Below, piece by piece: positions 2,122 through 58,250 of a DNA stretch of 64,000 nucleotides. The notes beneath the pieces were generated by a model. That model did no database searches, was not told where the DNA came from, and worked only from the letters and a program-made list of their open reading frames with translations. A program made the translations under genes and the position numbers. The stretch's first letter is position 1, and each line of letters begins with the position of its first letter. Source of the DNA: a virus (Duplodnaviria; Heunggongvirae; Uroviricota; Caudoviricetes); IMG/VR virus record IMGVR_UViG_3300031999_000011. The stretch is one strand, 5' to 3'.

Positions 2122-2979
2122 ATGATAAATATCATAAAAGTAATTATTATGAAATTACATGATTTGCTACCTAAACAAAAGCCCTTCACATCAGCAGTTG
2201 TTAATTTATATTTAAAAGAATACGCGGTTGAGTTTGATATTAATACAATTATCTATGAAGGTGAGTATAAAACATACCCCCGTCAAGACTTAATAAAAAA
2301 AATAAAAAATGAATTGAAATTGACAGTATATCCAGATGAACATGATCCAAACAATATATTAGTACAATTTTTACCAAGATTTGTAAAAGTAATGCCAAAA
2401 TTATTACAACAAGTGCAGTTGTATGGTTGGTTTATTTCTGGAATTGAAACAGATACAGAACAAGAATATAAAGGATCTGATGAAGTAACAATTAACAATT
2501 TTTTACATTCAGGTTATAGAGAAGCTATAATAACACTTGAACCTAAATATAGTGATGAATTTAAAACTCCAAAATTGTTGTATCACGTAACTCCAATAAG
2601 TGTATGGGAAACAAAGATAAAACAATACGGGTTGTCACCAAAATCTAAATCAGTTCAATCATTTCATCTTGAACGAGTGTATGTAACTACAACAGCAGAT
2701 TTAGCAATTGAATTAATTAAACCACTCGCAAATGCTGGACTGAACAATGCATCTAATCAACATTATGATTCGGCAAAATTTAATCCTAAAGAATATTATA
2801 AAAAATGGGTAGTATTAGAAATTGATACTACTAAAATATCTAGTGTTGATGGATACTCTTATTTTAGAGTACATATTGATCACAACACTGATAGTTTTAA
2901 TCAGCATGTTAGTTTGTATACGCAAAATTATATTCCTCCTGTAGCTATTAGAATAATCAAAACCATCAATGCTTATTAA
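2122..2979 (+). CDS. hypothetical protein; weak resemblance to KptA/Tpt1 RNA 2'-phosphotransferase core (LYHVT...GL.P...R.YV)
   Basis: 285-aa ORF; the H-x-T...GLSP segment resembles the Tpt1 HGT...GL.PM motif, otherwise unrecognised. Confidence 0.5.
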   Translation: MINIIKVIIMKLHDLLPKQKPFTSAVVNLYLKEYAVEFDINTIIYEGEYKTYPRQDLIKKIKNELKLTVYPDEHDPNNILVQFLPRFVKVMPKLLQQVQLYGWFISGIETDTEQEYKGSDEVTINNFLHSGYREAIITLEPKYSDEFKTPKLLYHVTPISVWETKIKQYGLSPKSKSVQSFHLERVYVTTTADLAIELIKPLANAGLNNASNQHYDSAKFNPKEYYKKWVVLEIDTTKISSVDGYSYFRVHIDHNTDSFNQHVSLYTQNYIPPVAIRIIKTINAY

Positions 2980-2993
2980 TAATTGATTTTTAT

Positions 2994-3203
2994 ATGTTAA
3001 AAACACTAGGTGAAAAAATGAGAATGATTAACATTGAAGAAGGATTAGGAGACGATATTCATTGTAGTAAATGTAATGGATATATTGATACTGGATTAGA
3101 ATGTACAGAATGTGGTCACGACATGCGCCCAGAAATTTATCCGGAAGATTATGTGTTAAATGCGTTAGTCTACAAAATATCGTATAATACGCATATCAAT
3201 TAA
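2994..3203 (+). CDS. small zinc-ribbon protein
   Basis: CSKCNGY...CTECGH four-Cys arrangement. Confidence 0.45.
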   Translation: MLKTLGEKMRMINIEEGLGDDIHCSKCNGYIDTGLECTECGHDMRPEIYPEDYVLNALVYKISYNTHIN

Positions 3204-3208
3204 GTGAG

Positions 3209-4387
3209 GTGGACTGTATGGAAGTCTTTATCTGTGGTGGTGCTGTTCGTGACGTAATCATGGGTCACGAACCAAAAGACATTGATTTTGTGGTCGTAGG
3301 TTCAACTCCTGCAGAAATGATTGCAAATGGTTTTAAACAAGTAGGTGTAGATTTTCCTGTGTTTTTGCATCCTAAGACTGGTGAAGAGTGGGCACTCGCA
3401 AGAACAGAGAGGAAAATCTCAGTTGGTTATAACGGTTTTACATGTGAGACAACTGATGTCACGTTGATACAAGACTTGTCACGCAGAGATTTATCTTGCA
3501 ACTCAATGGCTGTTAGAATCGAAGATTGGGCAGAATTCAAAAACACTAAAAGTGCGCATTTGGTTATAGATCCATTTTGGGGTCAAGCTGATATACATTG
3601 TGGTATATTGATTCATACCAGCGAAGCTTTTTCAGAAGACCCAATTCGGGTACTTCGTGTATCTCGCTTCGCTGCGAGGTACAACTTTGCTGTTGCACCT
3701 GAAACAATGCAGTTGATGTCTGATATCGTACATGAACTTGATCATGTACCAACAGAACGAATCTGGATGGAGTTTGAAAAAGGCTTGATGGAAGATCATT
3801 CACATAGGATGATTGAGGTCTTGCATGAAGTTGGTGCATTTCACGTTAAAGTCATGCAACCATTTAATCGTGCTCCTGATATGTGGCAACGTCCAAGTAG
3901 ATCTGATGTTTTGAAAAAAGCTGTTCATATTAAACATTTGCCATCCAGATTTGCTTTGATTGGTACAGGGTTTACAAAAGATGAATTTAAAACACACCGT
4001 ATTCCAAATGACTGTGCTGATATAAGTTTAATTATTAACAAACACGTTGAACGTTTGGCATTTTTTCATGTTTTTAATAAAGCTCAAAGATTGAATATTA
4101 TAATGGAATTGAGGGCAATACAACGACCTGTTGCATTTTTAAATCAGGTGTTTGATGTAGTAGATATATTGTTTGATGTGGATTGTACCATACATCGTGA
4201 TAAATTTTTTCAAGATATTAAAGATATTTCAAGAGTTGATGCTGCAGTTGTTGCTGAAAAAGCTAAAAAAGCATTTAACCCAAATGATATTTGGAGCTTA
4301 GGTACAACAATACAGAATGCAATCTTTAATGCAAGATTGGACATGATGGATGTTGATAAGCGTAATTGGGTAGTATCTGGTCAGTAA
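3209..4387 (+). CDS. cca: tRNA nucleotidyltransferase (CCA-adding enzyme) / poly(A) polymerase family
   Basis: N-terminal FICGGAVRDVIMG...KDIDFVV (GGxVRD...DxD class II nucleotidyltransferase head), RRD, ~390 aa. Confidence 0.85.
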   Translation: MDCMEVFICGGAVRDVIMGHEPKDIDFVVVGSTPAEMIANGFKQVGVDFPVFLHPKTGEEWALARTERKISVGYNGFTCETTDVTLIQDLSRRDLSCNSMAVRIEDWAEFKNTKSAHLVIDPFWGQADIHCGILIHTSEAFSEDPIRVLRVSRFAARYNFAVAPETMQLMSDIVHELDHVPTERIWMEFEKGLMEDHSHRMIEVLHEVGAFHVKVMQPFNRAPDMWQRPSRSDVLKKAVHIKHLPSRFALIGTGFTKDEFKTHRIPNDCADISLIINKHVERLAFFHVFNKAQRLNIIMELRAIQRPVAFLNQVFDVVDILFDVDCTIHRDKFFQDIKDISRVDAAVVAEKAKKAFNPNDIWSLGTTIQNAIFNARLDMMDVDKRNWVVSGQ

Positions 4388-4436
4388 TATAAATATAAAC
4401 AATAAATGGATGTAAAACTTATAGGAGGTAATTAAT

Positions 4437-4511
4437 ATGAAATGGGAAACACCAAGTTATAAAGACTTACGATTCGGATTCGAAATAACAATGTATATAT
4501 ATCATCGATAA
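4437..4511 (+). CDS. PqqA-like 24-aa peptide (MKWETPSYKDLRFGFEITMYIYHR)
   Basis: Strong SD TAGGAGG 8 nt upstream; about half the residues match canonical PqqA [23 protein letters not shown], including W, P, DLR, G, the E-x3-Y pair, I and terminal R. Confidence 0.5.
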   Translation: MKWETPSYKDLRFGFEITMYIYHR

Positions 4512-4513
4512 TT

Positions 4514-4909
4514 GTGAAATATTTATTGATAATATTAGTATTATTATGTACTAGTTGTGCTGACTACCCATATTATGGAGGATACGGAGGTGGATATCCT
4601 TATTATTCAGGATACGGCGGATATCCATATTATCGATCATATGGTGGATACCCGTATTATCGATCATATGGTGGATACCCGTATTATCGATCATATGGTG
4701 GACACGGTGGTGGATACGGTGGATACAGAGGAGGCTACTACAGTGGATGGAGTGGAGTACATAGTGGTGGAGGGAGTGGAGGACACGGTGGTGGATGGAG
4801 TGGAGGACACGGTGGTGGATGGAGTGGAGGACACGGTGGTGGATGGAGTGGAGGACACGGTGGTGGATGGAGTGGAGGACACGGTGGTGGATGGAGTGGG
4901 CATCGTTAA
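4514..4909 (+). CDS. Gly/Tyr-rich secreted repeat lipoprotein (GGYPYY(R)SY and GGHGGGWSG repeats)
   Basis: GTG start 2 nt after the PqqA-like stop; signal peptide with LLCTSC lipobox; two nested 30-bp tandem repeat arrays. Confidence 0.6.
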   Translation: MKYLLIILVLLCTSCADYPYYGGYGGGYPYYSGYGGYPYYRSYGGYPYYRSYGGYPYYRSYGGHGGGYGGYRGGYYSGWSGVHSGGGSGGHGGGWSGGHGGGWSGGHGGGWSGGHGGGWSGGHGGGWSGHR

Positions 4910-4956
4910 ACACTTAATCTAAAAACGTAATATTTATCAAATTTTAAAAATAATTA

Positions 4957-5229
4957 TTGCAATTTTTAGAAAATATCTTTAATATAGAGTATCACTATTC
5001 ATATAGTGATGTTTTATATTTGGAGATATATGTTATGAATTATTCTGATGATGCCACGAAAGTGGATATGTCTTATCCAATTTCTGTAAATGATATAGAA
5101 GATATACACCATACAAGAATTGCAATAACTGCATATTATAAGGCGGAAAAACGAAACTTTACACCTGGTCATGAACTTAATGATTGGCTGATTGCTGAAA
5201 AAGAATGTGATGTGTTTAGATATATTTAA
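4957..5229 (+). CDS. DUF2934-like small protein (AYYKAEKRNF..G....DWLIAEKE motif)
   Basis: C-terminal motif nearly identical to the C-terminus of the hydroxylase at 46483..47430. Confidence 0.5.
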   Translation: MQFLENIFNIEYHYSYSDVLYLEIYVMNYSDDATKVDMSYPISVNDIEDIHHTRIAITAYYKAEKRNFTPGHELNDWLIAEKECDVFRYI

Positions 5230-8763: not shown

Positions 8764-9327
8764 ATGCCAACATCAAATGGATTACCTAATTATACTGATT
8801 TTTTATCAGAAAATAAAGCGGGTATTAAACCACCAAATACTGTTGTAACAGATAAGTATAATGACATATTTGACCAGAATATGGTATTTTTGGTTGCTGC
8901 CGCAGCTGCTGAATTAGATAATGTTGCAACAACTGACCTCGCACCAAGATCGTTATCAGAATTTGCAGCACAAACATTATTATTAAAACAAGAAATTATT
9001 CGTAATGAAAAGCTTACATTGCTTGGTGTAGATTTTAATACACTTAAAACGGATTTTACTACACTTAAAACCGATTTCACTACATTTAAAACAGAATTTA
9101 ATATATTTAAAAATGATTTTAATATATTTAAAACAGATTTTAATTCACTTAAAGAACGAGGGGTTAATGAGAGTTTAGGTATTGTCAGTCGTGGAATTAG
9201 TGTAGGTGATATGAATAAAGATAATCGTGGTTTGATACGAATGGCATTAGATGATTCAGGTATGAAAGAAACATATCTCGCTGCACGACAAAGTGAAGTT
9301 GATACTCCAATGATTCCTAGCAGTTGA
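8764..9327 (+). CDS. repeat protein with heptad-like (F/L)KTDF(T/N)T repeats; possible fibre/adhesin component
   Basis: Seven or more consecutive 7-aa repeats encoded by a degenerate 21-bp DNA repeat. Confidence 0.55.
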   Translation: MPTSNGLPNYTDFLSENKAGIKPPNTVVTDKYNDIFDQNMVFLVAAAAAELDNVATTDLAPRSLSEFAAQTLLLKQEIIRNEKLTLLGVDFNTLKTDFTTLKTDFTTFKTEFNIFKNDFNIFKTDFNSLKERGVNESLGIVSRGISVGDMNKDNRGLIRMALDDSGMKETYLAARQSEVDTPMIPSS

Positions 9328-9578
9328 TAACTATGCCAAAAGCAGTTCGAGTTACAGATACTGATAGTGATGGAGATACCCAAATTACTGGATCCCCTGA
9401 TGTATTTACAAACAATTTAAAAAATGTTCGTGTACTTGATGTTGACAGTGATGGAGATATTCAACTAACTGGATCAGCTAATGTGTTTATTAATAATAAA
9501 AAAGCTGTTCGAGTTACAGATACAGATAGTGACGGAGATACACAAACTACTGGATCACCTAATGTGTATATAGGTTAA
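9324..9578 (+). CDS. three ~27-aa repeats with DxDxDGD calcium-binding-like loops
   Basis: AVRVTDTDSDGDTQ(I/T)TGS.NV repeated 3x (81-bp DNA repeat); start overlaps upstream stop (ATGA). Confidence 0.5.
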   Translation: MITMPKAVRVTDTDSDGDTQITGSPDVFTNNLKNVRVLDVDSDGDIQLTGSANVFINNKKAVRVTDTDSDGDTQTTGSPNVYIG

Positions 9579-10620: not shown

Positions 10621-10854
10621 ATGATAACTGAACGCATAATACATTGTATAAGATGTAATATATACGTTGGGACAATACGGGATGCTAAGCTTAAGAAAGG
10701 GTTAGCATTTGTTTGTCCAACTTGTATCGTTGAATTTAATAATATATCAAGTAGTTCTAGTAGTTCTAGTAGTTCTAGTAGTTCTAGTAGTGTATTTAGT
10801 GATTTATTTAATGATAGTATATTTGGAGGTATTTTTGATAAGGACAAATTATAA
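10621..10854 (+). CDS. zinc-ribbon protein with poly-Ser tract
   Basis: CIRCN...CPTC then 16 consecutive Ser encoded by the (AGTAGTTCT)n repeat. Confidence 0.45.
   Translation: MITERIIHCIRCNIYVGTIRDAKLKKGLAFVCPTCIVEFNNISSSSSSSSSSSSSSSVFSDLFNDSIFGGIFDKDKL
10746..10795 (+). repeat. (AGTAGTTCT)n microsatellite inside the CDS
   Basis: Five or more perfect 9-bp units read directly. Confidence 0.8.
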
Positions 10855-13035: not shown

Positions 13036-13110
13036 GACGTGTTGGTATAGTGGTTGTTGCCCTGGTCTGCAAAACCAGTGAGAAGGGTTCAATTCCCTTA
13101 CACGTCTCCA
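13036..13110 (+). tRNA. tRNA-Cys (GCA), encoded CCA
   Basis: Acceptor GACGTGT/ACACGTC; anticodon stem CTGGT/ACCAG with loop CTGCAAA; T-arm AAGGG-TTCAATT-CCCTT; 3' T-CCA. Confidence 0.8.
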
Positions 13111-13127
13111 AACAATAAGGGATTAAT

Positions 13128-13562
13128 ATGATACATTCAAAATCGACTACACTTTGTATTAAGAAAGCAAATAATGAAGTCACTATGACTACTAGACTTT
13201 CGCAAATTACTAGTCTGTTAACAGATTATAATATTGTTTACGGTCGTAAAACTTTACGAGAAATCAATGAAATTCTTCAAGGTATACCCGATAATGGATA
13301 TTTAGATTATGAAATATTTGAATCAGTTGAACCTATGAATATGGATTTACATTATCATGATGATCTTGAAGCCCGAGTTATTACAACCGGGTTAGGTACG
13401 TTTTTGTTTCCAAGTGATGATGCTGTAATTGAATTACAAGTATCAGCTGGTGATTATATTGTTATTCCAGGTAAAATGAAACATAGTTTTAAAACCCCTG
13501 GTAATCTTGCTGCCATTCGATTGTTTACAAATTATGATGGTTATATTGCTAATTATGTATAG
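13128..13562 (+). CDS. cupin-fold protein (two-motif cupin, acireductone-dioxygenase-like)
   Basis: HYHDDLEARVITTGLG (H.H...E......G) and GDYIVIPGKMKHSF (G.....P.G..H) cupin motifs. Confidence 0.55.
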   Translation: MIHSKSTTLCIKKANNEVTMTTRLSQITSLLTDYNIVYGRKTLREINEILQGIPDNGYLDYEIFESVEPMNMDLHYHDDLEARVITTGLGTFLFPSDDAVIELQVSAGDYIVIPGKMKHSFKTPGNLAAIRLFTNYDGYIANYV

Positions 13563-13666
13563 AGTTTATTTTGAACAAATAAATTAATATGGTAAAAAAA
13601 TTACAAATTTAAGTTGATTTATTGTTATAAATATACTACAATATAATATAATAAATTGACTTAGAG

Positions 13667-14107
13667 GTGTTTATGATCACAATATATCCATATAAGCTAC
13701 CTGGTAGCTCGTATATGATGATTGATAGAACAGGGATTGAAGTTCCAGGTCTTGATGTTTGGGTGTTTGATGATGAACAGCACGGATTACATCAAGAAGC
13801 TCTTATTTCTGGTACAGATGAAGTTATTGAATTTGTAACTAAAGACATACCAGATGCTGAAAAAGGCTTTAAATTAATATTCAGTGATGAAATGTTTGAA
13901 AATTATCAATTAGTTGGATATTGGTACAAAGCAGGTTATGCTAAGGGACCTTGGGCTAGTGATATTAAAGGTAATTGGTATCTTTGGAATTTACCATTTC
14001 AAAATAATCCAAAAATATATGGTTGGTTGTGCCCAGCGTTGTTTTTATATTTTGAAACTGCTCCATCAAAATTATATATCAGAGTTGAACCTATTAAACC
14101 TAAATAA
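13667..14107 (+). CDS. hypothetical protein
   Basis: 146-aa ORF. Confidence 0.5.
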   Translation: MFMITIYPYKLPGSSYMMIDRTGIEVPGLDVWVFDDEQHGLHQEALISGTDEVIEFVTKDIPDAEKGFKLIFSDEMFENYQLVGYWYKAGYAKGPWASDIKGNWYLWNLPFQNNPKIYGWLCPALFLYFETAPSKLYIRVEPIKPK

Positions 14108-14136
14108 TTAATATAAGTCAAATATAGGGATATAAT

Positions 14137-14667
14137 ATGAAACTTGATGAATTAATTGCACAAACATTACCATTACCATATACATGGATAAACGATCATA
14201 CTGCTACATTCGAATTTAAAGGTATTACCTTTATAATAGCATTAGCACCAACAGATCCTATCAAATTTGAAAAACAGAAAGATGGGTTGCGAGGCTTACA
14301 TATTGCATTCGGGATTGCAACACGACATGATTCAGACGGAACATATGATTTAAATACTGAATTAACCGGATTACATAATGCACGATTAGTTATTGCGACA
14401 GTAACATATGCTATTATTGATAAACTTAATAGTATATCATCATTGTATGATTTTATAGCTATAGTATCTAAAAATGATGCAGCGATGTCATCAAGAACTA
14501 AAATTTATCGAGCCGCGGTTATTGACGTAACAGATCATTTAACTCGTATGGGATATCAGTATACATATCAGTTAAAAAATGAGTTAGGAGCTGGTGTTTT
14601 CTTAATCTCAAAAATAGAATTAACACAATGGCAAGCTCAATTTATTGCTAAATTTCATTGTTCTTGA
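14137..14667 (+). CDS. hypothetical protein
   Basis: 176-aa ORF. Confidence 0.5.
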   Translation: MKLDELIAQTLPLPYTWINDHTATFEFKGITFIIALAPTDPIKFEKQKDGLRGLHIAFGIATRHDSDGTYDLNTELTGLHNARLVIATVTYAIIDKLNSISSLYDFIAIVSKNDAAMSSRTKIYRAAVIDVTDHLTRMGYQYTYQLKNELGAGVFLISKIELTQWQAQFIAKFHCS

Positions 14668-14704
14668 ATAATATAAGTAAATTAAAATGGATTTAAGAAA
14701 TTAA

Positions 14705-15049
14705 ATGCGAGTTTTAAAATTTGTTCAATTAGATGACGATTTAGTACCTATATCTGAAATAATTAATGTTGATATATCACAAATAATTACTGAAACTGTT
14801 TTAGTGTTATTAAAAAACGGTAAGATATATACCATCGTTGGACATCCGGCTCTTGAGATTATTTGGAGACTTAAACCTTCAGCATTAGAGGGAAATAGAT
14901 GTATAATATGGAAAAAACATATGTGGGCAGTACATAATATAATAGCTCATCCTCTTATGCAGATATTTGCTTGGTTTGGTGCGTATGATTTAGCTATTTG
15001 TATACATGATAGTACAATTCCAAAACCTATTGGATATAAAACATATTAA
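14705..15049 (+). CDS. hypothetical protein
   Basis: 114-aa ORF. Confidence 0.45.
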   Translation: MRVLKFVQLDDDLVPISEIINVDISQIITETVLVLLKNGKIYTIVGHPALEIIWRLKPSALEGNRCIIWKKHMWAVHNIIAHPLMQIFAWFGAYDLAICIHDSTIPKPIGYKTY

Positions 15050-15055
15050 CGTATT

Positions 15056-15445
15056 ATGAATAATGTATCACTATTAGTATTAATTGCATTGTTTATACTT
15101 AAACATTTTGTTATTGATTTTTTTTTAGAAACTCCTTATCAATCTAATAATAAACATATATTAGGTCATTTAGGAGGTATATTGCATGCACAGTTACATA
15201 GTTTTACATCTTGGGTAATATTAGGATTTACATTTAACTTCTTTATACCTATAGTTGTGGTAGCTGTGGTAGCTGAATTTTTTATTCATTATTTTATTGA
15301 TTTAGTTAAAACAAATTTATGTGTATTATATAAATGGCAGTATAATACTCAAAAAGGGTTTTGGTATATGTTAGGTGCTGATCAAGCACTTCATTATTTG
15401 ACGTATATTGCGATGATATATTATATTATTACACATATTAATTAA
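15056..15445 (+). CDS. integral membrane protein (tandem paralog A, DUF3307-like His-rich TM protein)
   Basis: LKHFVIDFFLETPYQSNNKHILGHLGGILHAQLHSFTSWVILGF; 3-4 predicted TM segments. Confidence 0.55.
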   Translation: MNNVSLLVLIALFILKHFVIDFFLETPYQSNNKHILGHLGGILHAQLHSFTSWVILGFTFNFFIPIVVVAVVAEFFIHYFIDLVKTNLCVLYKWQYNTQKGFWYMLGADQALHYLTYIAMIYYIITHIN

Positions 15446-15449
15446 AATT

Positions 15450-15821
15450 GTGAACACTACATTATTGATTGTAATCGGACTTTTTACGATTAAACACTTT
15501 ATTATGGATGTTTTGTGTCAAACACCATATCAATTTCAACATAAACATATATTAGGACATCCAGGTGGAATTATCCACACATCATTACACGCATTTACGT
15601 CTTGGTTAATACTAGGATTTATATTTGGGTTTTTAACTCATGTAGTTGTAATTGCCGTTATATTTGAGTTTTTTGCTCATTATTTTATAGATTTTTTTAA
15701 AAGAAATTTCACATTAATGCATAAATTAACTCCAGCTGATTTGAACTATTGGTACGTATCAATATTTGATCAATTATTACATTATTTAACATATTTTTGT
15801 ATGATTTATTATATAATATAG
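15450..15821 (+). CDS. integral membrane protein (tandem paralog B)
   Basis: IKHFIMDVLCQTPYQFQHKHILGHPGGIIHTSLHAFTSWLILGF; about 55% identity to the previous ORF. Confidence 0.55.
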   Translation: MNTTLLIVIGLFTIKHFIMDVLCQTPYQFQHKHILGHPGGIIHTSLHAFTSWLILGFIFGFLTHVVVIAVIFEFFAHYFIDFFKRNFTLMHKLTPADLNYWYVSIFDQLLHYLTYFCMIYYII

Positions 15822-15979
15822 TGGCATTATAATTAGAAATAATGTATAATGTACTTAGAATTTAAGTTATAACAATTTTATGAATTATTTAAAAACTTTT
15901 GAATATATAATATGTTTTGAAGATAATTTAATTTAATTTAATTTAATTATATAATATTTTAAATATTTGGAGATAAATT

Positions 15980-16249
15980 ATGAATTACTATAATGTTAGT
16001 TTAGCAATTAGCGGATATGCATTTATGCGACGTATCAGTTATGAGTTGTATGATACATGTAATAAACTAATTAATGATGCACGTTCCCGTTATCGTTATA
16101 CCACAATTATATTAAATGGTATGGAATATGATGTAATATCATATGGTTATGGTTTTTACATTGCAGTAGCTGAACCAACATATAACCACCGTTTATCAAA
16201 TGTTAATCGTAGCAGTATTGAGTGCAATCATATTGTGGCCGAACAATAA
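15980..16249 (+). CDS. hypothetical protein
   Basis: 89-aa ORF. Confidence 0.4.
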   Translation: MNYYNVSLAISGYAFMRRISYELYDTCNKLINDARSRYRYTTIILNGMEYDVISYGYGFYIAVAEPTYNHRLSNVNRSSIECNHIVAEQ

Positions 16250-16276
16250 AATAATTCAATATATGATGATACGATA

Positions 16277-16510
16277 ATGTCAATTCAAGAATTTTTAGAT
16301 AGTTGTAATGATACAGTTGATATTGATAATTCATTCACTTTAAGTTGGTCCAAAGAAGGTGTCGGATTTGGTGAGTTTCGGTTTTATAAAAGTGAAGACG
16401 AGGCAATTCATATTAATAATGAATGTATGGGAAAGAATTTTATTAAAAATGTATTATGTAATATGGTTGATATTGCTATTTTAGATGATCCCTACGAAAA
16501 AATTGAATAG
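16277..16510 (+). CDS. hypothetical protein
   Basis: 77-aa ORF. Confidence 0.4.
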   Translation: MSIQEFLDSCNDTVDIDNSFTLSWSKEGVGFGEFRFYKSEDEAIHINNECMGKNFIKNVLCNMVDIAILDDPYEKIE

Positions 16511-16526
16511 GTTAAAATAATTATTA

Positions 16527-16814
16527 ATGCGAAATATAAACAATATATCTGTTAAACTTGACAAAGAATGTTATTGTCCTGTATGTAATTGTAAAATCAA
16601 TGCAGCTACAGCATTAGATGGTAGTGGTGTAGTACCTAATGCTGGAGATGTAAGTATGTGTGTCATGTGTTCTGCATATTTAAAATATTCAGATGATTTA
16701 ACTCTCCGTGAGCTAACAGTTGATGAACTGGTTGATTTACCAGATGATATATTATATGTGCTAACTAAAACACGTAGTATATTTAAAAATATAAGTGGCA
16801 ATAAAAACTGTTAA
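16527..16814 (+). CDS. small Cys-rich (zinc-binding?) protein
   Basis: CYCPVCNC...CVMC. Confidence 0.4.
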   Translation: MRNINNISVKLDKECYCPVCNCKINAATALDGSGVVPNAGDVSMCVMCSAYLKYSDDLTLRELTVDELVDLPDDILYVLTKTRSIFKNISGNKNC

Positions 16815-16911
16815 TTGATAAGTTATATAGGAGAATAATTATGATTAAATTATAAATTGTCTACCATTGATAAATACAATTTTTTTCTAATTTCGTTTAA
16901 AGTGACTTAAA

Positions 16912-17556
16912 ATGTTTATATTTGATATATCTAGCCTCATAATAGGGGCAATGTTTGGCGGTATTTGGGCATCTATATTCTCAACTATGTTTATTGCTGC
17001 GGTAATTTTATTAACCGCTACTGATGAATTTTGGTGGTCATATGGATCATTATTATTGTATACTGTAATATTAGCAATATTTACACCAGCTAATCCGTTT
17101 TTATATATTTGGCACAATCCACTAAGCTCTATCGAAATTTTTATTGGATATTTTATAATAGGTGCCGTTTTTGCTTTATTAAAGTACTGGTCTTTTATAC
17201 AAAGGGTTGTACAGAAAATAAAAGATTTTAAGAAACAATTTATTATTGATAATAAACTTGAAATATCTACAATTGATGAAATACCAGAAGAGTATAAAAA
17301 ATTATGGAATAGTTATAAATCACAGAAGTTATCAAGTTCAGAATTACATAAAATTAATAATGGTTTACGTCCGAGTAATAACTCAGCACTTATTATGAAT
17401 TGGATTGCATGGTGGCCATTTGTGGCTGTAGGGTTATTTGTTGCAGATCCATTAAGAAAGTTGGTTAAAGCAATATACGAACATCTAGTTTCCACCTTTG
17501 GGAAAATGTATGAACATATTGTTACAAAAAACATCAATATGACAGACTTAAAATAA
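16912..17556 (+). CDS. integral membrane protein
   Basis: Five or more hydrophobic segments in the N-terminal 170 aa. Confidence 0.55.
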   Translation: MFIFDISSLIIGAMFGGIWASIFSTMFIAAVILLTATDEFWWSYGSLLLYTVILAIFTPANPFLYIWHNPLSSIEIFIGYFIIGAVFALLKYWSFIQRVVQKIKDFKKQFIIDNKLEISTIDEIPEEYKKLWNSYKSQKLSSSELHKINNGLRPSNNSALIMNWIAWWPFVAVGLFVADPLRKLVKAIYEHLVSTFGKMYEHIVTKNINMTDLK

Positions 17557-17573
17557 CATATGAGGAAGATTTA

Positions 17574-17744
17574 ATGTTAGAAGATATAGTGTTAGATATA
17601 TGTGGTGCACTTGGGTTAATTGTATGTGGTGTAATTGGTATTGGTGTGTTTGCAGCATGTATTGCATTCCCGTGGATCCTAGGTATTGTAGGTGCAATAT
17701 CAATTAATGCAGTGATAGAAAACGATGAATCATTAGTACTTTAA
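17574..17744 (+). CDS. small membrane protein (56 aa)
   Basis: SD GAGGAAG upstream; two hydrophobic helices with GxxxG-like spacing. Confidence 0.35.
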   Translation: MLEDIVLDICGALGLIVCGVIGIGVFAACIAFPWILGIVGAISINAVIENDESLVL

Positions 17745-17768
17745 TACTTAAGTTTATACGAATAAGTA

Positions 17769-17978
17769 ATGCAAAACGAATCAATTGATTATCCAGTAGC
17801 TTCAGCAAATAAACCATATCGAGTGACAGCATATCATTATACCCGTAATAATAACCGTAGTTTTATCGTTGGAGATTATCGCTGGTATTGGCAAGCTAAT
17901 TTAGTATCTTGGTGGTGGCATCAACTAGGATGGGGTTGTAACACATGGAAAAAATACAACAACATTTCTGAAGCTTAA
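17769..17978 (+). CDS. hypothetical Trp-rich protein
   Basis: 69-aa ORF. Confidence 0.35.
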   Translation: MQNESIDYPVASANKPYRVTAYHYTRNNNRSFIVGDYRWYWQANLVSWWWHQLGWGCNTWKKYNNISEA

Positions 17979-18082
17979 GATCTATTATTGATCAAATAAT
18001 AGGTCATCAAATTGCTGAAGAAATTTGGGGTGGCTCAATTACTCGTAAACCACGTATATTACCAACTATTAAGGTAACAAAA

Positions 18083-18478
18083 ATGGAACAATATTTGATA
18101 GATGATTATGGAGTTATTGAAAGTGAACAATATCTTCAACGAGTTGAAGATATAGAGCCTTATTTTGAAAATTGTAGTGAGGGTATGTTTGATTGTGGTC
18201 GAGGATATTATCAAGATGAAATTTACCGTTTTGTAAAAATTGGTGATAAGTTTTATAATGTACGCATTACAGCAGTAATATATAATCACAAGCAAGATCG
18301 TGGTGCTGAATTATACTATGTAAATTCAATTGCTGATGTTACATATAACGAAATTGATAAACCATTACCGATTCTAAAAAAATTGATTAATTTGGAGGTA
18401 GCAATATCTGATTCACGATTAGCAGAATTGAAAGAGTGGTTAGATACACACGGTGTAGAATATAGTAATTTTGCATAA
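18083..18478 (+). CDS. hypothetical protein
   Basis: 131-aa ORF. Confidence 0.5.
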   Translation: MEQYLIDDYGVIESEQYLQRVEDIEPYFENCSEGMFDCGRGYYQDEIYRFVKIGDKFYNVRITAVIYNHKQDRGAELYYVNSIADVTYNEIDKPLPILKKLINLEVAISDSRLAELKEWLDTHGVEYSNFA

Positions 18479-18627
18479 GATTTAATTTGATTTTTACTTA
18501 AAATGGATATATAATATCTTTATGTTGTTAAACAGGAGGAGTTATATGGATATAACATAGATTTAACTAAAATACATTTTGTCTTTTAGTTAAATTACAT
18601 GTGTCGAATTTGTATAAATAAAGAATT

Positions 18628-18702
18628 GGTAGATGAGCTAGTTTGGAATAGCGTGCGCCTGAAGAGCGTGAGAATAAGGTTCGAATCCTTGATCTACCAC
18701 CA
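18628..18702 (+). tRNA. tRNA-Phe (GAA), encoded CCA
   Basis: Acceptor GGTAGAT/ATCTACC; D-arm GCTA-GTTTGGAA-TAGC; anticodon loop CTGAAGA; T-loop TTCGAAT; A-CCA. Confidence 0.8.
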
Positions 18703-18710
18703 GAATTAAT

Positions 18711-18786
18711 TGGGCTATAGTGTAATTGGAAACACCTCACACTTTGACTGTGATATTGTTCGGTTCGAGTCCGGCTAGCCCTACCA
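18711..18786 (+). tRNA. tRNA-Gln (TTG), encoded CCA
   Basis: U1 start as in bacterial tRNA-Gln; D-arm GTGT-AATTGGAA-ACAC; anticodon stem TCACA/TGTGA with loop CTTTGAC; T-loop TTCGAGT; 1:72 U-U mismatch. Confidence 0.7.
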
Positions 18787-18858
18787 CTTTTAAAAAGATA
18801 AATAAGTAGATACACTAAAAGTAGTGGTTAAAATATAATATACGTAGGAGATTGTATA

Positions 18859-19245
18859 ATGATAAAATTAATATTTATAGCACTATTATGTGTTTTTGTT
18901 ACAGGTTGTGCATCAATGAGCAATTGGACGCCAACAGTTGATACATATAACGATAGACGTGCATCTCATATCCCGCAAGATCAAGCAGAGTGCAGACAAT
19001 TAGCATCTCAAGCATCTGGTGGAACAGTTAAAGAAACCTTTACCGGTGCAGGTGTAGGAGCATTAATAGGTGCAGCAGGTGGAGCAATCGCTGGAGCGTT
19101 TATCGGAAATCCAGCAACTGGTGCAGCGATTGGTGCTGCTGCAGGTGGTTTTGGTGGTGGTGCTGGATTGGGCTTCAACGCCGAGAACAATTATAAACAA
19201 TCATACAAAGTTTGTATGAGACACAGAGGTCATACAGTAATTTAG
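18859..19245 (+). CDS. OsmB/SlyB-like glycine-zipper outer-membrane lipoprotein
   Basis: Lipobox FVTGCAS; GAGVGALIGAAGGAIAGAFIGNPATGAAIGAAAGGFGGG glycine zipper; paralog of 33194..33673. Confidence 0.65.
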   Translation: MIKLIFIALLCVFVTGCASMSNWTPTVDTYNDRRASHIPQDQAECRQLASQASGGTVKETFTGAGVGALIGAAGGAIAGAFIGNPATGAAIGAAAGGFGGGAGLGFNAENNYKQSYKVCMRHRGHTVI

Positions 19246-19258
19246 TATGAAAAATTAT

Positions 19259-19336
19259 GCGCTCGTAGCTCAATTGGATTAGAGCATAGGATTTCTAATC
19301 CTATGGTTGGAGATTCGAATTCTCTCGAGCGTGCCA
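19259..19336 (+). tRNA. tRNA-Arg (TCT), encoded CCA
   Basis: Acceptor GCGCTCG/CGAGCGT; anticodon stem TAGGA/TCCTA with loop TTTCTAA; T-arm GGAGA-TTCGAAT-TCTCT; G-CCA. Confidence 0.8.
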
Positions 19337-19353
19337 AACATTAAAAGAATTAT

Positions 19354-19431
19354 GTCCATGTAGCTCAATTGGATTAGAGCATCGGTCTACGAAACCGAAG
19401 GTTATCCGTTCAAATCGGATCATGGATACCA
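19354..19431 (+). tRNA. tRNA-Arg (ACG), encoded CCA
   Basis: Acceptor GTCCATG/CATGGAT; anticodon stem TCGGT/ACCGA with loop CTACGAA; T-arm ATCCG-TTCAAAT-CGGAT; A-CCA. Confidence 0.8.
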
Positions 19432-19472
19432 AATGGTAAAAAAATGATATATAATATATCTTAATGAATAAT

Positions 19473-19548
19473 GCAGGTGTAGCTCAATGGGTAGAGCGCC
19501 GTCCTTCCAAGTCGGATGTTGCAGAATCGTCCTCTGTCACCTGCTCCA
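19473..19548 (+). tRNA. tRNA-Gly (TCC), encoded CCA; atypical T-loop ATCGTCC
   Basis: Acceptor GCAGGTG/CACCTGC; anticodon loop CTTCCAA; one mismatch in the anticodon stem; A54/U58 instead of T54/A58. Confidence 0.65.
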
Positions 19549-19555
19549 ATTTTAT

Positions 19556-19631
19556 GCTTCGTTAGCTCAATGGGTAGAGCACTGCATTGTCACTGCAGAG
19601 GCAGCGGGATCATAGCCCGCACGAGGCGCCA
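19556..19631 (+). tRNA. tRNA-Asp (GTC), encoded CCA; atypical T-loop ATCATAG
   Basis: Acceptor GCTTCGT/ACGAGGC; anticodon stem CTGCA/TGCAG with loop TTGTCAC; T-stem GCGGG/CCCGC; G-CCA. Confidence 0.7.
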
Positions 19632-19663
19632 AATATAATGTAATTATATCAATTAAATGATTT

Positions 19664-19885
19664 ATGAAATTTCACAAACTTGAAGTATACGTTTTCGATT
19701 TTGAAGAAGGTGATAATATTAAAGATATTATCGTTGAAATTGAACAAAATCGACATTTTAATATGGAAGTTAAAGCTCATCAAACAGTTGATATTGGTGA
19801 ATGGGATGATGATCATGAATTAAATCTAACACGCACTTCATTAGAACAGTTTAGAGCGTATTTTGAAAAGAATAATGTCGGGTGA
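19664..19885 (+). CDS. hypothetical protein
   Basis: 73-aa ORF lying between tRNA genes. Confidence 0.4.
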   Translation: MKFHKLEVYVFDFEEGDNIKDIIVEIEQNRHFNMEVKAHQTVDIGEWDDDHELNLTRTSLEQFRAYFEKNNVG

Positions 19886-19922
19886 TACTCATGTGAATCC
19901 GTGAGTCTGGTTATAATTAAAT

Positions 19923-20000
19923 GGGCCTGTATCCCAATTGGTAAGAGGACACCGGCTTAGACCCGGTGTGTTGGAGATTCGAATTCTCTCAGGCCTACCA
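19923..20000 (+). tRNA. tRNA with anticodon TAG (Leu, reads CUA) but class-I short variable loop; encoded CCA
   Basis: Acceptor GGGCCTG/CAGGCCT; 3-bp D-stem; anticodon stem ACCGG/CCGGT with loop CTTAGAC; variable GTGTT; T-arm GGAGA-TTCGAAT-TCTCT; A73-CCA. Confidence 0.6.
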
Positions 20001-21506: not shown

Positions 21507-21908
21507 ATGAAATTTTTAGGATTGTTAGTATTATTGTTAATTGTATCTGGTTGTGCAACTATAATTAGTGGTACTACAGATAATGTGTTAGTTAAAAGTA
21601 CTCCATCAGGAGTACCGTTTACTATACAAAATAAATCGGGTGTAACAGTAGTAGGTGGTGTAACACCAACAAAAGTTCAGCTGAAAAGAGGTGATGGATA
21701 TTTTAATGATGAAGTATATAAAGTAAATTATGTTATAAAAGGGTTTTACCCGCAAACAAGTGTTATTGCAGCATCAATAAATCCATGGTATTTTGGTAAT
21801 TTAATATTTGGTGGAATAATAATAGGCGGAATAATAATAGATCCGTTAACAGGTGCAATGTGGTCATTCCCAAGCGATACAAATATATTATTATTTCCAA
21901 TTCAATAA
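21507..21908 (+). CDS. lipoprotein with C-terminal glycine zipper (GGIIIGGIIIDP)
   Basis: Lipobox IVSGCAT; SD-like GGAGAG upstream. Confidence 0.55.
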   Translation: MKFLGLLVLLLIVSGCATIISGTTDNVLVKSTPSGVPFTIQNKSGVTVVGGVTPTKVQLKRGDGYFNDEVYKVNYVIKGFYPQTSVIAASINPWYFGNLIFGGIIIGGIIIDPLTGAMWSFPSDTNILLFPIQ

Positions 21909-32185: not shown

Positions 32186-32512
32186 ATGAAACGTTTAATA
32201 TTAATTGGTATATTGTTATGCAGTATATCAGCATATGCATATGGTCACGGTTACGGAGGTGGTTGGAGTAATAATGGGCAAAATGCTTACAATAATCAAA
32301 ATTGGAGCAATCGTCAATGGAATGCTACTATTCCAGGATATAATGTTCCTTATCGTTATTATGGTTACGGTTATACACCTTACCCTTATTATCCCCAACA
32401 GTATTATGGTTATCCCCAACCGTATTATGGTTATCCACAACCGTATTATGGTTATGGTGGTGCACAATTTGGTATTTCAATACCTGGTTTCAGTTTATTT
32501 TTTGGTAATTAA
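32186..32512 (+). CDS. secreted Gly/Tyr/Pro/Gln-rich repeat protein (paralog 1 of 3)
   Basis: Signal peptide; YYGYPQP repeats; C-terminus GISIPGFSLFFGN. Confidence 0.6.
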   Translation: MKRLILIGILLCSISAYAYGHGYGGGWSNNGQNAYNNQNWSNRQWNATIPGYNVPYRYYGYGYTPYPYYPQQYYGYPQPYYGYPQPYYGYGGAQFGISIPGFSLFFGN

Positions 32513-32538
32513 ATTTATTACCTAATAGGAGTGTTAAA

Positions 32539-32862
32539 ATGTATAAATTAACAATACTAATAATAGTATTATTTTTTAATGTGGTAGTCTATGCAGACGG
32601 TGGGGAACATCATGGTCACGGTGGATATGGTGGGGGTTGGGAAGGACATCATGGTCACGGTGGATATGGTGGGGGTTGGGAAGGACATCGTGGTGGTTGG
32701 GGAGGACATCATGGTGGATATGGACGTCAACTATATTACCCTTATCCTTCATACCCACAATATCCTATAATTCAACAACCTTACTACCCACAACAGTATT
32801 ATGGTTATGGTCAACAATTTGGTATTATAGCACCTGGTGTTAGTATATTTTTTGGTAATTAA
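32539..32862 (+). CDS. secreted Gly/His/Tyr-rich repeat protein (paralog 2 of 3)
   Basis: Signal peptide; [13 protein letters not shown] repeats; C-terminus [13 protein letters not shown]. Confidence 0.6.
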
Positions 32863-32888
32863 TTTATTATGATATTAAGGAATATAAA

Positions 32889-33191
32889 ATGTATAAGTTA
32901 TTATTAATACTGTTATTGTTTAGTGTATTAGTATACGCTGACGACGACGATGACGATGACGATGATAATGGGAGATATCAACAAGGTTATAGTTATTCAA
33001 TACCAACATATGGATATCCACAAGGTTATGGATATCCACAAGGTTATGGATATCCACAAGGTTACGGATATCCACAAGGTTATGGATATCCACAAGGATA
33101 CCGGTATCCACCACACGGTTATAGATATCACCCAAGACAAGGTGGCGTACAAATAATTGTACCAGGATTATATTTAAATTTTGGAGGATAA
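32889..33191 (+). CDS. secreted poly-Asp plus (YPQGYG)n repeat protein (paralog 3 of 3)
   Basis: Signal peptide; D9 tract; six YPQGYG repeats; C-terminus [12 protein letters not shown]. Confidence 0.6.
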
Positions 33192-33193
33192 TA

Positions 33194-33673
33194 ATGAAAT
33201 ATTTAATAATAGTAATGTTGTTGTTAGTTGGTTGCGCAAGTGAAAGTGGTTGGGTTCCAACTGTCGACACATCATATCAACCACAACAACAACAATATCA
33301 ACCACAACAACAATATCAACCACAACCTGGAGCGCCATCAGTGCAGCAAGGTGGATATGTACCGGAAGTACAACAAGGTTATGATCCGAATGCATACAAT
33401 CAGGCAATGGTTGAATGTCAGATGCTTGCTAAACAGGCATCTGGTGGTACATTCAATTCAACTATTACTGATGCTGCAGGTGGTGCTTTATTAGGTGCTG
33501 CAGGTGGAGCAATTGTAGGAGCATTCACAGGAAACCCTGGAACTGGAGCTGCTATTGGTGCTGCTGCAGGTGGTTTTGGGGGAGGTACATATGGTGGATT
33601 AAGTTCCAATGCAACTTATAAAAGTGCATTTTCAAATTGTTTAAGGCAAAGAGGTTATCGAGTACTCAATTAA
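33194..33673 (+). CDS. OsmB/SlyB-like glycine-zipper lipoprotein with Q-rich linker (paralog of 18859..19245)
   Basis: Lipobox LLVGCAS; QPQQQQYQPQQQYQPQ; LLGAAGGAIVGAFTGNPGTGAAIGAAAGGFGGG; conserved C-terminus ...C..RG..V. Confidence 0.65.
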   Translation: MKYLIIVMLLLVGCASESGWVPTVDTSYQPQQQQYQPQQQYQPQPGAPSVQQGGYVPEVQQGYDPNAYNQAMVECQMLAKQASGGTFNSTITDAAGGALLGAAGGAIVGAFTGNPGTGAAIGAAAGGFGGGTYGGLSSNATYKSAFSNCLRQRGYRVLN

Positions 33674-40371: not shown

Positions 40372-40746
40372 ATGAAAACTACAATTGCAATATTAATAAT
40401 AGTAGGGTTGACAGGATGTGCAATACTTACATTTGATCCTGTTGAATATGATAGGTATATCACATTAAAAATGACAGCTGATGCTGCTATTCCAGAATGT
40501 GGTACCGATAAAATTAATAATAGTGTAATACAGTTAAGTGATTTAATCGCACATCAATATGTATCAACATCAAATAGAAGCGGTCGTGTACAAATAACAA
40601 CAGCAACTACTGAAATGGCTTCTTTGATTTCACAACTACAAATAAGGTATAAAGAAGGAACCCCTTCTATTGGATACTGTCAAGAAAAATTAAAAAATAT
40701 TTCTTCAGGTGCCACAACAATTTTACACACCTTGGGACAAATGTAA
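40372..40746 (+). CDS. lipoprotein
   Basis: Lipobox IVGLTGCA. Confidence 0.5.
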   Translation: MKTTIAILIIVGLTGCAILTFDPVEYDRYITLKMTADAAIPECGTDKINNSVIQLSDLIAHQYVSTSNRSGRVQITTATTEMASLISQLQIRYKEGTPSIGYCQEKLKNISSGATTILHTLGQM

Positions 40747-57989: not shown

Positions 57990-58250
57990 ATGAAATTATT
58001 AGTATGTATAGTGTTTTTTGCACCAGTAATATTGTTAGGTTGTGCAACAAAAACAAGTGTAGAGCAACTTCAAGCACAAATTGACCCAATTAAATATGAT
58101 GTTCGAGAGTTACATAAAGCTACAACAAGTGCGAAGTATGCAGTTGAACGTGCTAATATGCGTGCTGATAAAGCTTATATCGCAAGTAAATTAGCATTAC
58201 AGATAAATCAAGAGCTTAATGAAAGGGTTACATCAGAGGTAAATAAATAA
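57990..58250 (+). CDS. Lpp (Braun lipoprotein)-like small coiled-coil lipoprotein; possible o-spanin or exclusion lipoprotein
   Basis: Lipobox VILLGCAT followed by ~60-aa heptad helix, as in Lpp. Confidence 0.5.
   Translation: MKLLVCIVFFAPVILLGCATKTSVEQLQAQIDPIKYDVRELHKATTSAKYAVERANMRADKAYIASKLALQINQELNERVTSEVNK

Follow-up and report, generated by a model that had tools for sequence, protein, structure and literature searches.

Tandem HGGGW octarepeats in a candidate lipoprotein gene directly downstream of pqqA in a phage genome: a possible metal-binding envelope protein

The window analyzed in this work is a stretch of 64,000 nucleotides (nt) from a virus of the class Caudoviricetes (IMG/VR record IMGVR_UViG_3300031999_000011), and the gene under study occupies positions 4514 to 4909 of its plus strand. 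The predicted product carries a lipoprotein leader followed by two tandem-repeat modules, and contains five exact HGGGW cores at a period of eight residues, plus three further histidines. The GTG start codon begins 2 nt past the stop codon of pqqA, the gene for the precursor of pyrroloquinoline quinone (PQQ). From these sequence features we propose, tentatively, that the product is a disordered envelope protein which is exported, held by a lipid tether and able to bind metal, and that it is expressed together with PqqA. The position of pqqA directly upstream, the likeness to the prion octarepeat and the bacterial analogues described below are absent from an earlier interpretation of the same DNA (hereafter, the sequence-only reading), which had described a Gly/Tyr-rich repeat lipoprotein.

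Several elements of this locus belong to kinds that are already known, namely phage accessory lipoproteins, tandem-repeat disordered proteins, His-rich metal-binding repeats and phage-borne pqqA. The new ones are the occurrence of an HGGGW octarepeat of the prion type in an envelope protein of phage or bacterial origin, the conserved coupling of this gene to pqqA, an unnamed class of bacterial exported proteins with His/Gly/Trp and Tyr/Pro modules, and phage genomes in which repeat number was the one polymorphism observed, the rest being identical.

Coding frame, leader and repeats of the gene

The list of open reading frames (ORFs) of the window gave the gene exactly the limits and the GTG start claimed for it in the sequence-only reading, with a product of 131 amino acids (aa). 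That reading had also warned that the ORF could be an artefact of other frames open across the repeats, and the warning was justified: three forward and two reverse frames are open there, and public gene calls chose the +2 frame wrongly in four of six contigs (the calls in L177-L180 end at locus position 788 instead of 775). Because of this mis-framing, the database proteins for the locus are mostly wrong. The GC content at third codon positions (GC3) nevertheless favored frame 1, with a value of 0.23 as compared to 0.61 and 0.70 in the other two forward frames; since 10 long genes of the window, used as reference, had a mean GC3 of 0.18, only frame 1 matches them. In addition, an ortholog (MKYILVVLLLLIVGCADYGGYYPYSSGYYPYSSGYYPQYHYHYYPSYGYGWNHGYGSYGGGYGGWNHGYSGGYGGWGHGGGWGHH) was found at the equivalent position of a relative phage, L017, whose CCA-adding enzyme is 71% identical to that of the window and whose DNA gave no blastn alignment with it above 300 nt. 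Despite this divergence the leader, the lipobox cysteine, the ADY that follows it, the composition, the position of the stop codon and the junction with pqqA were all kept. The ortholog (MKYILVVLLLLIVGCADY...GHGGGWGHH) starts with ATG, has a canonical lipobox and a DUF2934 neighbor as in the window, and presents the same order of Tyr/Pro and then Gly/His/Trp sequence. A similar layout was also found in bacterial contigs of 55-73% GC, that is, in a wholly different frame context. Codon composition and conservation thus mark the ORF as a genuine conserved gene with frame 1 as the coding one, and hardly any weight can be given to the alternative that it is an accidental open frame over a DNA repeat, or that another frame is the real one, even though the GTG has no Shine-Dalgarno site.

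Direct homology searches failed because the sequence is of low complexity. The protein reached the curated threshold of no family in Pfam, PHROGs or NCBIfam; 8000 word-sharing candidates were scored and none attained E ≤ 0.01, an exact-sequence look-up came back empty, and tblastn against 50,697 GenBank phage records gave no match. Scans of IMG/VR with the exact repeat DNA pattern, with two degenerate repeat patterns and with an HGGGW-x3-HGGGW pattern were equally without match. The opinion that such a protein is unusual for a phage was therefore borne out by the tblastn and pattern searches.

The leader comprises a short basic n-region (M-K-Y) and the hydrophobic stretch LLIILVLL. The earlier description of a GTG-initiated lipoprotein with the lipobox LLCTSC stands as regards the hydrophobic leader ending in Cys15, but the box itself (C-T-S-C) is atypical: compared with the consensus [LVI][ASTVI][GAS]C it fits at positions -1 and -2 and deviates at -3, where a Cys is found. 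The leader of the L017 ortholog, MKYILVVLLLLIVGC followed by ADY, aligns with it position for position and has a canonical I-V-G-C box with the Cys at the same place; the five other predicted lipoproteins of the window (18859-19245, 21507-21908, 33194-33673, 40372-40746, and 57990-58250) have canonical lipoboxes throughout. Lipidation at Cys15 is likely but, because of the atypical Cys at -3, not certain. By the Lol rule of E. coli, Ala at +2 sorts a lipoprotein to the outer membrane.

Two in-frame tandem arrays had been placed at about 4590-4700 and 4771-4900, and both were recovered by Tandem Repeats Finder with scores far above chance (array A, 4589-4702, period 27 bp, 4.2 copies, score 158; array B, 4743-4899, period 24 bp, 6.5 copies, score 286). 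The repeat period of 30 bp in the sequence-only reading was incorrect, the sole 30-nt spacing being that from 4565 to 4595, and the second peptide unit is the octapeptide GGHGGGWS rather than the nonapeptide GGHGGGWSG. The two degenerate units of array B (GGYYSGWS and GVHSGGGS, 4730-4777) precede five GGHGGGWS units that are 100% identical at the DNA level (4778-4897), and the protein ends in ...GGGWSGHR. After Cys15, the mature part of 116 residues consists of 44.8% Gly, 20.7% Tyr, 11.2% Ser, 6.9% His, 5.2% Trp, 4.3% Pro, and 4.3% Arg, with one acidic residue. AlphaFold2, run on the single sequence, gave a mean confidence score (pLDDT) of 45.9 with a helix at residues 3-15 only, and the mature protein is predicted to be intrinsically disordered.

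A 14-nt stretch at 4499-4512, which spans the pqqA stop codon and ends before the GTG, was found to be 93% complementary to one segment in each RSY-encoding unit of array A (4629-4642, 4656-4669, and 4683-4696). This complementarity could occlude the start on the mRNA or could be due to chance around an ATCGAT palindrome, and it is not obviously conserved in L017.

Repeat number among public assemblies

Near-identical contigs of the phage were present in several metagenomes, the longest, ena:ERZ27247761:k141_2851824, having 120,398 bp. The sequence-only reading had considered the locus likely to vary in length, and the comparison of copy number over nine contigs, in which collapse of repeats by the assemblers is possible, agreed with it: the protein was identical in all of them save for the number of units, which varied between 2 and 3 for RSY and between 1 and 5 for HGGGWSG. 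The window has 3 RSY and 5 HGGGWSG units (131 aa). Three RSY units were accompanied by 4, 3, and 2 HGGGWSG units in L179, L178, and L180 (123, 115, and 107 aa, respectively), and two RSY units by 3, 2, and 1 HGGGWSG units in L176, L177, and L181 (106, 98, and 90 aa, respectively). Two loci were partial: L183, with 2 RSY units and 1 HGGGWSG unit, and L182, with 3 HGGGWSG units. Aligned with the window by blastn, the longer loci displayed 0 mismatches over 5,108 to 15,229 bp and 1-2 gaps, both inside the gene under study. Since the units of 24 and 27 bp are multiples of three, all nine alleles remained in frame, and a phase-variable ON/OFF contingency locus was rejected in favor of length variation. 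If the variation is real, the repeat number would be a fast strain marker, being the sole difference in up to 15 kb between the phage genomes of the samples.

At least part of this variation is probably real. The alternative, which we consider rather unlikely, is that the true population has a single allele and that the differences arose by short-read collapse of perfect 24- and 27-bp repeats. Such a collapse is in line with the 100% identity of the variable units, with the contigs that end in or just before the gene (L010, L182, L183, L016, and L018) and with the imperfect arrays of genes 32186 and 32889, which were invariant across these assemblies. It fits less well with the seven allele combinations obtained in nine assemblies from two pipelines (MEGAHIT k141 and that of the Joint Genome Institute, JGI) and with the independent variation of arrays A and B; besides, some arrays are far shorter than the final k-mer, so that a k=141 graph should resolve them, and the 39-bp unit of gene 32539 differed too, in one contig.

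Two independent assemblies of the relative phage, L016 and L018, break within pqqA, just before the lipoprotein gene, which is consistent with assembly trouble or with strain variation at the locus of the relative too.

Proposed function and its alternatives

PqqA scored 43.1 bits in Pfam against a gathering score of 21.1, and its E-x3-Y motif is intact (E16-I-T-M-Y20). The Glu and Tyr of this motif are the residues that become cross-linked in PQQ formation. As read from the sequence, pqqA has a Shine-Dalgarno site and the lipoprotein gene has none of its own; each of the four genes at 32186-33673, for comparison, has a purine-rich site of the AAGG/AGGAG/GGAGG type shortly before its ATG. Given the missing ribosome-binding site and the 2 nt that separate the pqqA stop codon from the GTG, the simplest reading is that both genes share one mRNA and are translationally coupled. 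In L017, pqqA is conserved and the junction consists of TAA, 2 nt and ATG. A -1 frameshift fusing PqqA to the lipoprotein was considered and rejected, the upstream frame being open in the window but closed in L017, with no slippery site seen. Neither pqqB-E nor radical-SAM families turned up in the window and the 5 kb upstream, which together cover all but about 50 kb of the 120-kb contig, so that PqqA is not part of a pqqABCDE operon there. A long hairpin downstream probably marks the end of the cassette: folding of 4905-5034 yielded -32.1 kcal/mol (z = -5.85), and L017 has a classic hairpin with a U8 terminator at the equivalent place. A simple terminator scan of the window detected none, and Rfam gave no match in the region of the gene, with tRNAs elsewhere in the window only.

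The pairing of pqqA with a Gly/Tyr lipoprotein looks specific to the lineage of this phage, because no bacterial pqqA match among the 120 loci recovered had a Gly/Tyr-rich ORF downstream and because in phage Melnitz the pqqA-like ORF is followed by a tRNA gene and not by such a lipoprotein. The pattern of the pqqA/lipoprotein junction had no match in the metagenome scan, the pattern itself being correct and the collection evidently devoid of this phage. An orphan pqqA without pqqBCDE nearby is a feature shared with phages of methylotrophs: it was described in Methylophilaceae phages of Lake Baikal (PMC7678222), and PqqA-like matches were obtained in Melnitz, Venkman, P19250A, MEP phages and other Methylophilales phages. 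The window differs from them in the Gly/Tyr lipoprotein gene that follows.

The PqqA peptide also bears on the host. That of the window is identical at 21 of 24 positions to the Methylococcales type MKWETPSYTDLRFGFEVTMYIYNR, which occurs, among the matches listed, in Methylobacter, Methylomonas, Methylomicrobium and several metagenome-assembled genomes of Methylococcaceae, with a close variant in Cycloclasticus; the PqqA of L017 is one residue away from this type, and the Burkholderiales types among the matches listed reached at most 19/24. The window itself has about 30% GC, eight tRNA genes and mostly small ORFs on the same strand, and large phages of gammaproteobacterial methanotrophs with 32-44% GC are known (PMC7674155). 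These sequence data tentatively suggest a large phage whose host is probably a methane- or methanol-oxidizing bacterium.

As regards metal binding, the octarepeat (PHGGGWGQ)4-5 of the mammalian prion protein (PrP) binds Cu(II) by means of HGGGW: every such unit coordinates one Cu2+ with the imidazole of its His and the amides of the two Gly that follow, and at low copper about four His share one Cu2+ with a dissociation constant of about 1e-10 M (PMC2663819). The phage protein shares with this octarepeat the HGGGW core, the 8-residue period, the 24-bp units, a copy number that is polymorphic (here in the public assemblies) and, by prediction, the arrangement of about 4-5 tandem units in a flexible, Gly-rich, membrane-tethered extracytoplasmic chain. 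It differs in the anchor (a predicted lipoprotein vs. glycosylphosphatidylinositol in PrP), in the spacer residues (G..SG vs. P..GQ, the full PHGGGWGQ consensus being unmet) and in the lack of a folded C-terminal globular domain, and the L017 ortholog keeps one exact HGGGW only. The likeness is one of convergence, with no sign of common descent. Because the chemistry belongs to the HGGGW peptide itself, Cu(II) binding in vitro is to be expected, by analogy with PrP, of a flexible tether that carries five such units and three more His; metal binding as the physiological role is much less certain. Among the functions put forward in the sequence-only reading, a His-Gly metal-binding role is the best supported by this comparison. 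Lanthanide or calcium binding was discarded given the one acidic residue. BilRI of Aggregatibacter is likewise reported to be a small outer-membrane lipoprotein with a disordered mature part that acts as a binder (PMC5383217), whereas in composition, ligands and origin it is unrelated, and such tandem repeats are absent from it.

A degenerate DNA scan for HGGGW-x3-HGGGW recovered 32 loci in metagenome contigs. One of them, L173 (ERZ1645191 NODE-11605), encodes a complete mammalian prion protein with PHGGGWGQ x5, presumably from host or contaminant DNA, and acted as positive control of the scan; most of the others are ORFs of bacteria whose products combine a signal peptide with a His/Gly/Trp repeat and a stretch rich in Tyr and Pro. 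Tandem GGHGGGWS units identical to those of the phage protein appeared in L160, and L147 and L169 contain YSGGHGGGWSGGHGGGWSGGG followed by AYPYYGGYYAAYPYYGGYY. The lipoprotein of L152 (LAVGGC) reproduces the phage layout, with Tyr/Pro and then Gly/Trp/His sequence ending in ...GGHR, and in L154 a lipoprotein glycine-zipper domain (PF13436) is fused to Tyr/Pro and (GGWGGWHGGGW)3 modules. All these proteins (L152, L160, L147/L169, L156, and L154) have in common with the phage protein a signal peptide or lipobox, HGGGW-type repeats and Tyr/Pro stretches (AYPYYGGYY), but they are encoded in high-GC contigs (0.55-0.73), none of them beside pqqA, and most present the reversed module order plus a hydrophobic Gly-rich segment, a Cys-pair or a Gly-zipper domain. 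In line with metal binding, the related exported proteins are rich in His, Asp, Glu, and Trp, and several of them, judged by eye, have a His right after a plausible Ala-x-Ala signal-peptidase site. Their low-complexity parts matched no Pfam or NCBIfam family, and BLASTP of the phage protein against that of L152 gave no alignment, both sequences being of low complexity. On sequence features, these bacterial proteins are analogues that are possibly homologous and make up one unnamed class. Contig L172 (Ga0315338_1000247, 175 kb) encodes at 2901-4076 a bacterial signal-anchor protein of 345 aa with eight perfect C-terminal RYGHGGGW octarepeats and no Pfam family.

According to the function that we propose, ribosomes finishing PqqA would continue onto the GTG of the lipoprotein gene, and the 15-residue leader would lead to Sec export, lipidation at Cys15 and, with Ala at +2, localization at the inner face of the outer membrane. 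The mature chain would be disordered, with (GGYPYYxSY)4 as its Tyr/Pro module and (GGHGGGWS)5 as its His/Gly/Trp module; each HGGGW could coordinate one Cu(II) by its His imidazole together with the two backbone amides that follow, and, as happens in the prion octarepeat, several His could jointly wrap one Cu(II) at higher affinity. In this way the protein would act as a lipid-tethered multivalent binder or buffer of metal, chiefly Cu2+, in the host periplasm, and together with the PQQ precursor it would form an accessory cassette conditioning the periplasm of a methane- or methanol-oxidizing host. Slippage or unequal recombination of the DNA-identical, in-frame units would change the number of sites between 1 and 5 while leaving the protein intact. 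If true, a copper-binding HGGGW octarepeat of the prion type would be on record outside animals for the first time, as a case of convergent metal-site evolution in disordered proteins, and the contributions of phages to methane and methanol oxidation (pmoC, methanol dehydrogenase, and pqqA) might extend to periplasmic metal handling.

Several points weigh against this proposal. No copper-homeostasis families were found among 73 neighbor ORFs of 31 bacterial HGGGW loci (three Pfam runs), the sole near-exception being a generic HlyD/CusB-type barrel-sandwich domain, and because copper genes are missing beside the bacterial analogues the copper role is without support from genomic context. Homology between the phage protein and these analogues is not statistically demonstrable, owing to low complexity. 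Apart from its one exact HGGGW, the L017 ortholog has its other His in GWNHGY contexts, and the Tyr/Pro part, about half of the protein, is unexplained by metal binding. The assignment of the host rests on a 24-aa peptide and on the matches listed, and the copper rationale would be weakened if the host were a non-methanotrophic methylotroph. To these must be added the Cys at position -3 of the lipobox, the possible assembly collapse with the contig ends and invariant imperfect arrays already mentioned, and the main rival, which follows.

This rival, not mutually exclusive with metal binding and in our judgment somewhat unlikely, holds that the lipoprotein serves to condition the envelope or to exclude superinfecting phages and has no function specific to metals. 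A sticky, tethered Gly/Tyr/Trp chain would bind outer-membrane proteins, lipopolysaccharide or peptidoglycan, thus stabilizing the envelope over a long infection or blocking the receptors or DNA entry of competing phages, and would act alongside the glycine-zipper (SlyB/YfgH-like) and Lpp-like lipoproteins of the phage. The window encodes at least six predicted lipoproteins, two of them with a glycine zipper and one with an alanine zipper (Lpp-like), and host-envelope proteins seem to be a major investment of this phage; the glycine-zipper lipoproteins SlyB and YfgH are reported to stabilize the outer membrane under envelope stress (bioRxiv 10.64898/2025.12.22.696046 and 10.64898/2026.06.08.730324). 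The fusion of a Gly-zipper domain to Tyr/Pro and Gly/Trp/His modules in L154, the terminal Cys-pair motif of L147 and L164, which resembles that of the gene at 33194-33673, and the BON, PDZ-protease and AmiC-type genes among the neighbors of the bacterial analogues point in the same direction. On the other hand, the protein under study has no glycine-zipper domain (PF13436, PF13441, and PF13488 in Pfam), the Gly-zipper genes are 14 and 28 kb away from it, and no homology to known exclusion proteins was found in Pfam, PHROGs or NCBIfam. The HGGGW periodicity and the coupling to pqqA would also be left unexplained.

A more specific form of the metal-binding proposal, and a distinctly unlikely one, is that the cassette constitutes a two-cofactor module of C1 oxidation, with a PQQ precursor, consumed stoichiometrically, for the periplasmic methanol dehydrogenase and, encoded on one mRNA with it, a lipid-tethered Cu(II) octarepeat protein serving particulate methane monooxygenase in a methanotroph. 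The lipoprotein would capture or buffer periplasmic copper, and the slipping repeat number would tune capacity and affinity, as in PrP. If so, the HGGGW copper site would have evolved independently in mammals and in unnamed bacterial and phage envelope proteins.

It is quite improbable that the protein self-assembles in the periplasm or at the cell surface, whether into amyloid, into a condensate or hydrogel, or into a layer cross-linked through dityrosine. The high content of Gly and Tyr (45 and 21%) is the argument in its favor, the composition resembling that of [G/S]Y[G/S] low-complexity domains and of Tyr-cross-linked structural proteins, and bound Cu together with peroxide could drive dityrosine formation. 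Nevertheless, the AlphaFold2 model was neither beta-rich nor otherwise ordered, which speaks only weakly against the amyloid fold suggested in the sequence-only reading as it is a single-sequence prediction; the protein lacks repeats of the Gln/Asn-rich or curli-like kind, the window showed no gene for a tyrosinase, a peroxidase or curli-type secretion, and a single lipid-anchored chain of 116 residues is poorly suited to build a layer. A virion coat, which had also been suggested, is unlikely because an exported protein leaves the cytoplasm, where the virions of tailed phages assemble; the leader is of the Sec/lipoprotein type, and the surroundings of the gene are small ORFs and tRNAs of an accessory region and not the identified virion genes.

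Still less probable is a role in lysis, in which the protein would help to disrupt the outer membrane late in infection in the manner of an o-spanin or of a Gly-rich antimicrobial peptide. Like o-spanins, the product is a small lipoprotein, Gly/His- and Gly/Tyr-rich antimicrobial peptides exist in eukaryotes, and the secreted proteins encoded near 32 kb matched the Pfam families 'Fungus-induced' and GRP below threshold. However, no endolysin, holin or i-spanin was found nearby with Pfam and PHROGs, the neighbors being the CCA enzyme, pqqA and the DUF2934 gene; the protein lacks the Cys used by o-spanins for disulfide-linked dimers, and it appears to be co-transcribed with a metabolic precursor peptide. 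An Rz1-like o-spanin in particular was rejected, the gene being neither embedded in nor next to an i-spanin gene, with no lysis cassette around it.

Other genes of the window

The features of the locus and of the rest of the window are listed in Table 1.

Table 1. Positions of the features of the pqqA-lipoprotein locus and of other genes in the window.
Feature	Position	Strand	Description
Shine-Dalgarno site of pqqA	4423..4428	+	AGGAGG; read from sequence
pqqA, first cistron	4437..4511	+	24-aa PQQ precursor MKWETPSYKDLRFGFEITMYIYHR; Pfam PF08042, E 3.7e-11
Gene under study	4514..4909	+	GTG start; 131-aa predicted prolipoprotein, mature part 116 aa; ORF list
Signal peptide and lipobox	4514..4558	+	MKYLLIILVLLCTSC; Cys15 predicted lipidation site, then ADY
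Array A (Tyr/Pro module)	4589..4696	+	Four 27-bp units: GGYPYYSGY, then GGYPYYRSY x3; last two units identical
Array B (His/Gly/Trp module)	4730..4897	+	Seven 24-bp units, 2 degenerate and 5 perfect
Long hairpin	4973..5029	+	26-bp stem; 3' arm covers GGAG (5022-5025) of next gene
DUF2934 protein	5035..5229	+	64 aa; Pfam PF11154, E 8.4e-11; equivalent position in L017
tRNA maintenance set	3209-4387; 52091-52504; 57260-57985; 13036-20000		CCA-adding enzyme, PTH2, Thg1-like enzyme and tRNA genes
Second glycine-zipper lipoprotein	18859..19245	+	Pfam marks, lipobox scan
Secreted family, three tandem genes	32186-32512; 32539-32862; 32889-33191	+	Leaders of signal peptidase I type ending in YA
Glycine-zipper (SlyB/YMGG-like) lipoprotein	33194..33673	+	Pfam PF13436, E 3.3e-10; directly after the three secreted genes

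The gene under study had been described as the first of four similar genes, the other three being secreted Gly/Tyr/His/Pro-rich paralogs at 32186-33191. Their signal peptides and composition were confirmed, but the paralogy was not, and the phrase is overstated, since these three genes form a separate family. Alignment with hhalign covered only the leader (residues 1-13) and BLASTP gave no match. Both groups have in common the phage, a size of about 100 aa, export, His/Gly/Trp and Tyr/Pro modules and tandem repeats; the 32-kb proteins differ in their leaders, which are of the signal peptidase I type and end in A(D/H), and in the module order, which is the opposite one: a His/Gly/Trp module (poly-Asp in the third gene) comes first and is followed by a Tyr/Pro/Gln module and by a C-terminal motif, GIs(I/V)PGFs(L/F)FF within F/VGI..PG.s.FFGN, that is missing from the lipoprotein. 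The likeness, as far as the sequences allow to judge, is compositional and modular, without demonstrable paralogy.

When 1.84 billion cluster representatives were searched with a profile built from the three 32-kb genes and P0002, 23 of them were retrieved at E ≤ 1e-3, each one a secreted protein of about 100 aa with the same C-terminal motif; neither the window genes nor these representatives belong to a Pfam family. The motif was compared with PGF-CTERM, PEP-CTERM and the beta-signal of outer-membrane proteins and these were rejected, there being no transmembrane segment with a basic tail, and residues continuing beyond the final Phe. The relative phage has one such gene only, before its glycine-zipper lipoprotein, so that the three genes of the window may be a lineage-specific tandem expansion or, alternatively, genes may have been lost in the relative (two phages compared). 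The Gly-zipper protein and that of L154 displayed 35% identity over 128 residues, a match with no statistical support (E = 1.8).

With regard to the phage as a whole, no close relative was found in GenBank phages by megablast and blastn, which returned short tRNA-nucleotidyltransferase matches only, and a search of IMG/VR with the CCA enzyme gave no match. The PHROG matches in the window included tRNA nucleotidyltransferase (2e-88), a sigma factor, a family shared with Caulobacter phage Cr30 and a family annotated as GTP cyclohydrolase, the ORF of which carries Pfam QueF domains. This QueF-like gene (QueF_N and QueF domains, 61087-61989) is directly followed at 61993-63543 by an ORF of 516 aa with matches to homing/HNH endonuclease PHROGs and to DUF723/DUF7487, and the pair may be linked to 7-deazaguanine metabolism. 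The tRNA maintenance set includes a PTH2 peptidyl-tRNA hydrolase, a Thg1-like enzyme and the eight tRNA genes, and a second PTH2 is encoded just upstream of the window (L007). A second DUF2934 domain, fused to a fatty-acid hydroxylase domain, was found at 46483-47430.

Two adjacent gene pairs, 5316-5645/5747-6058 (alike by eye) and 25104-25949/25918-26694 (with a common weak LSDAT_prok mark), may be tandem duplicates, and local duplication may be common in this genome. Other tandem repeats of the window are located at 9030-9153 (21 bp x5.9), 9345-9572 (81 bp x2.8), 10750-10791 (perfect, 9 bp x4.7), and 62217-62361 (69 bp x2.1). In contigs with a CCA enzyme 57% identical to that of the window, the next gene codes for a squalene-hopene cyclase of 647 aa (7295-9238 in L019 and 5030-6973 in L020), which would be unusual if these contigs are of phage origin.

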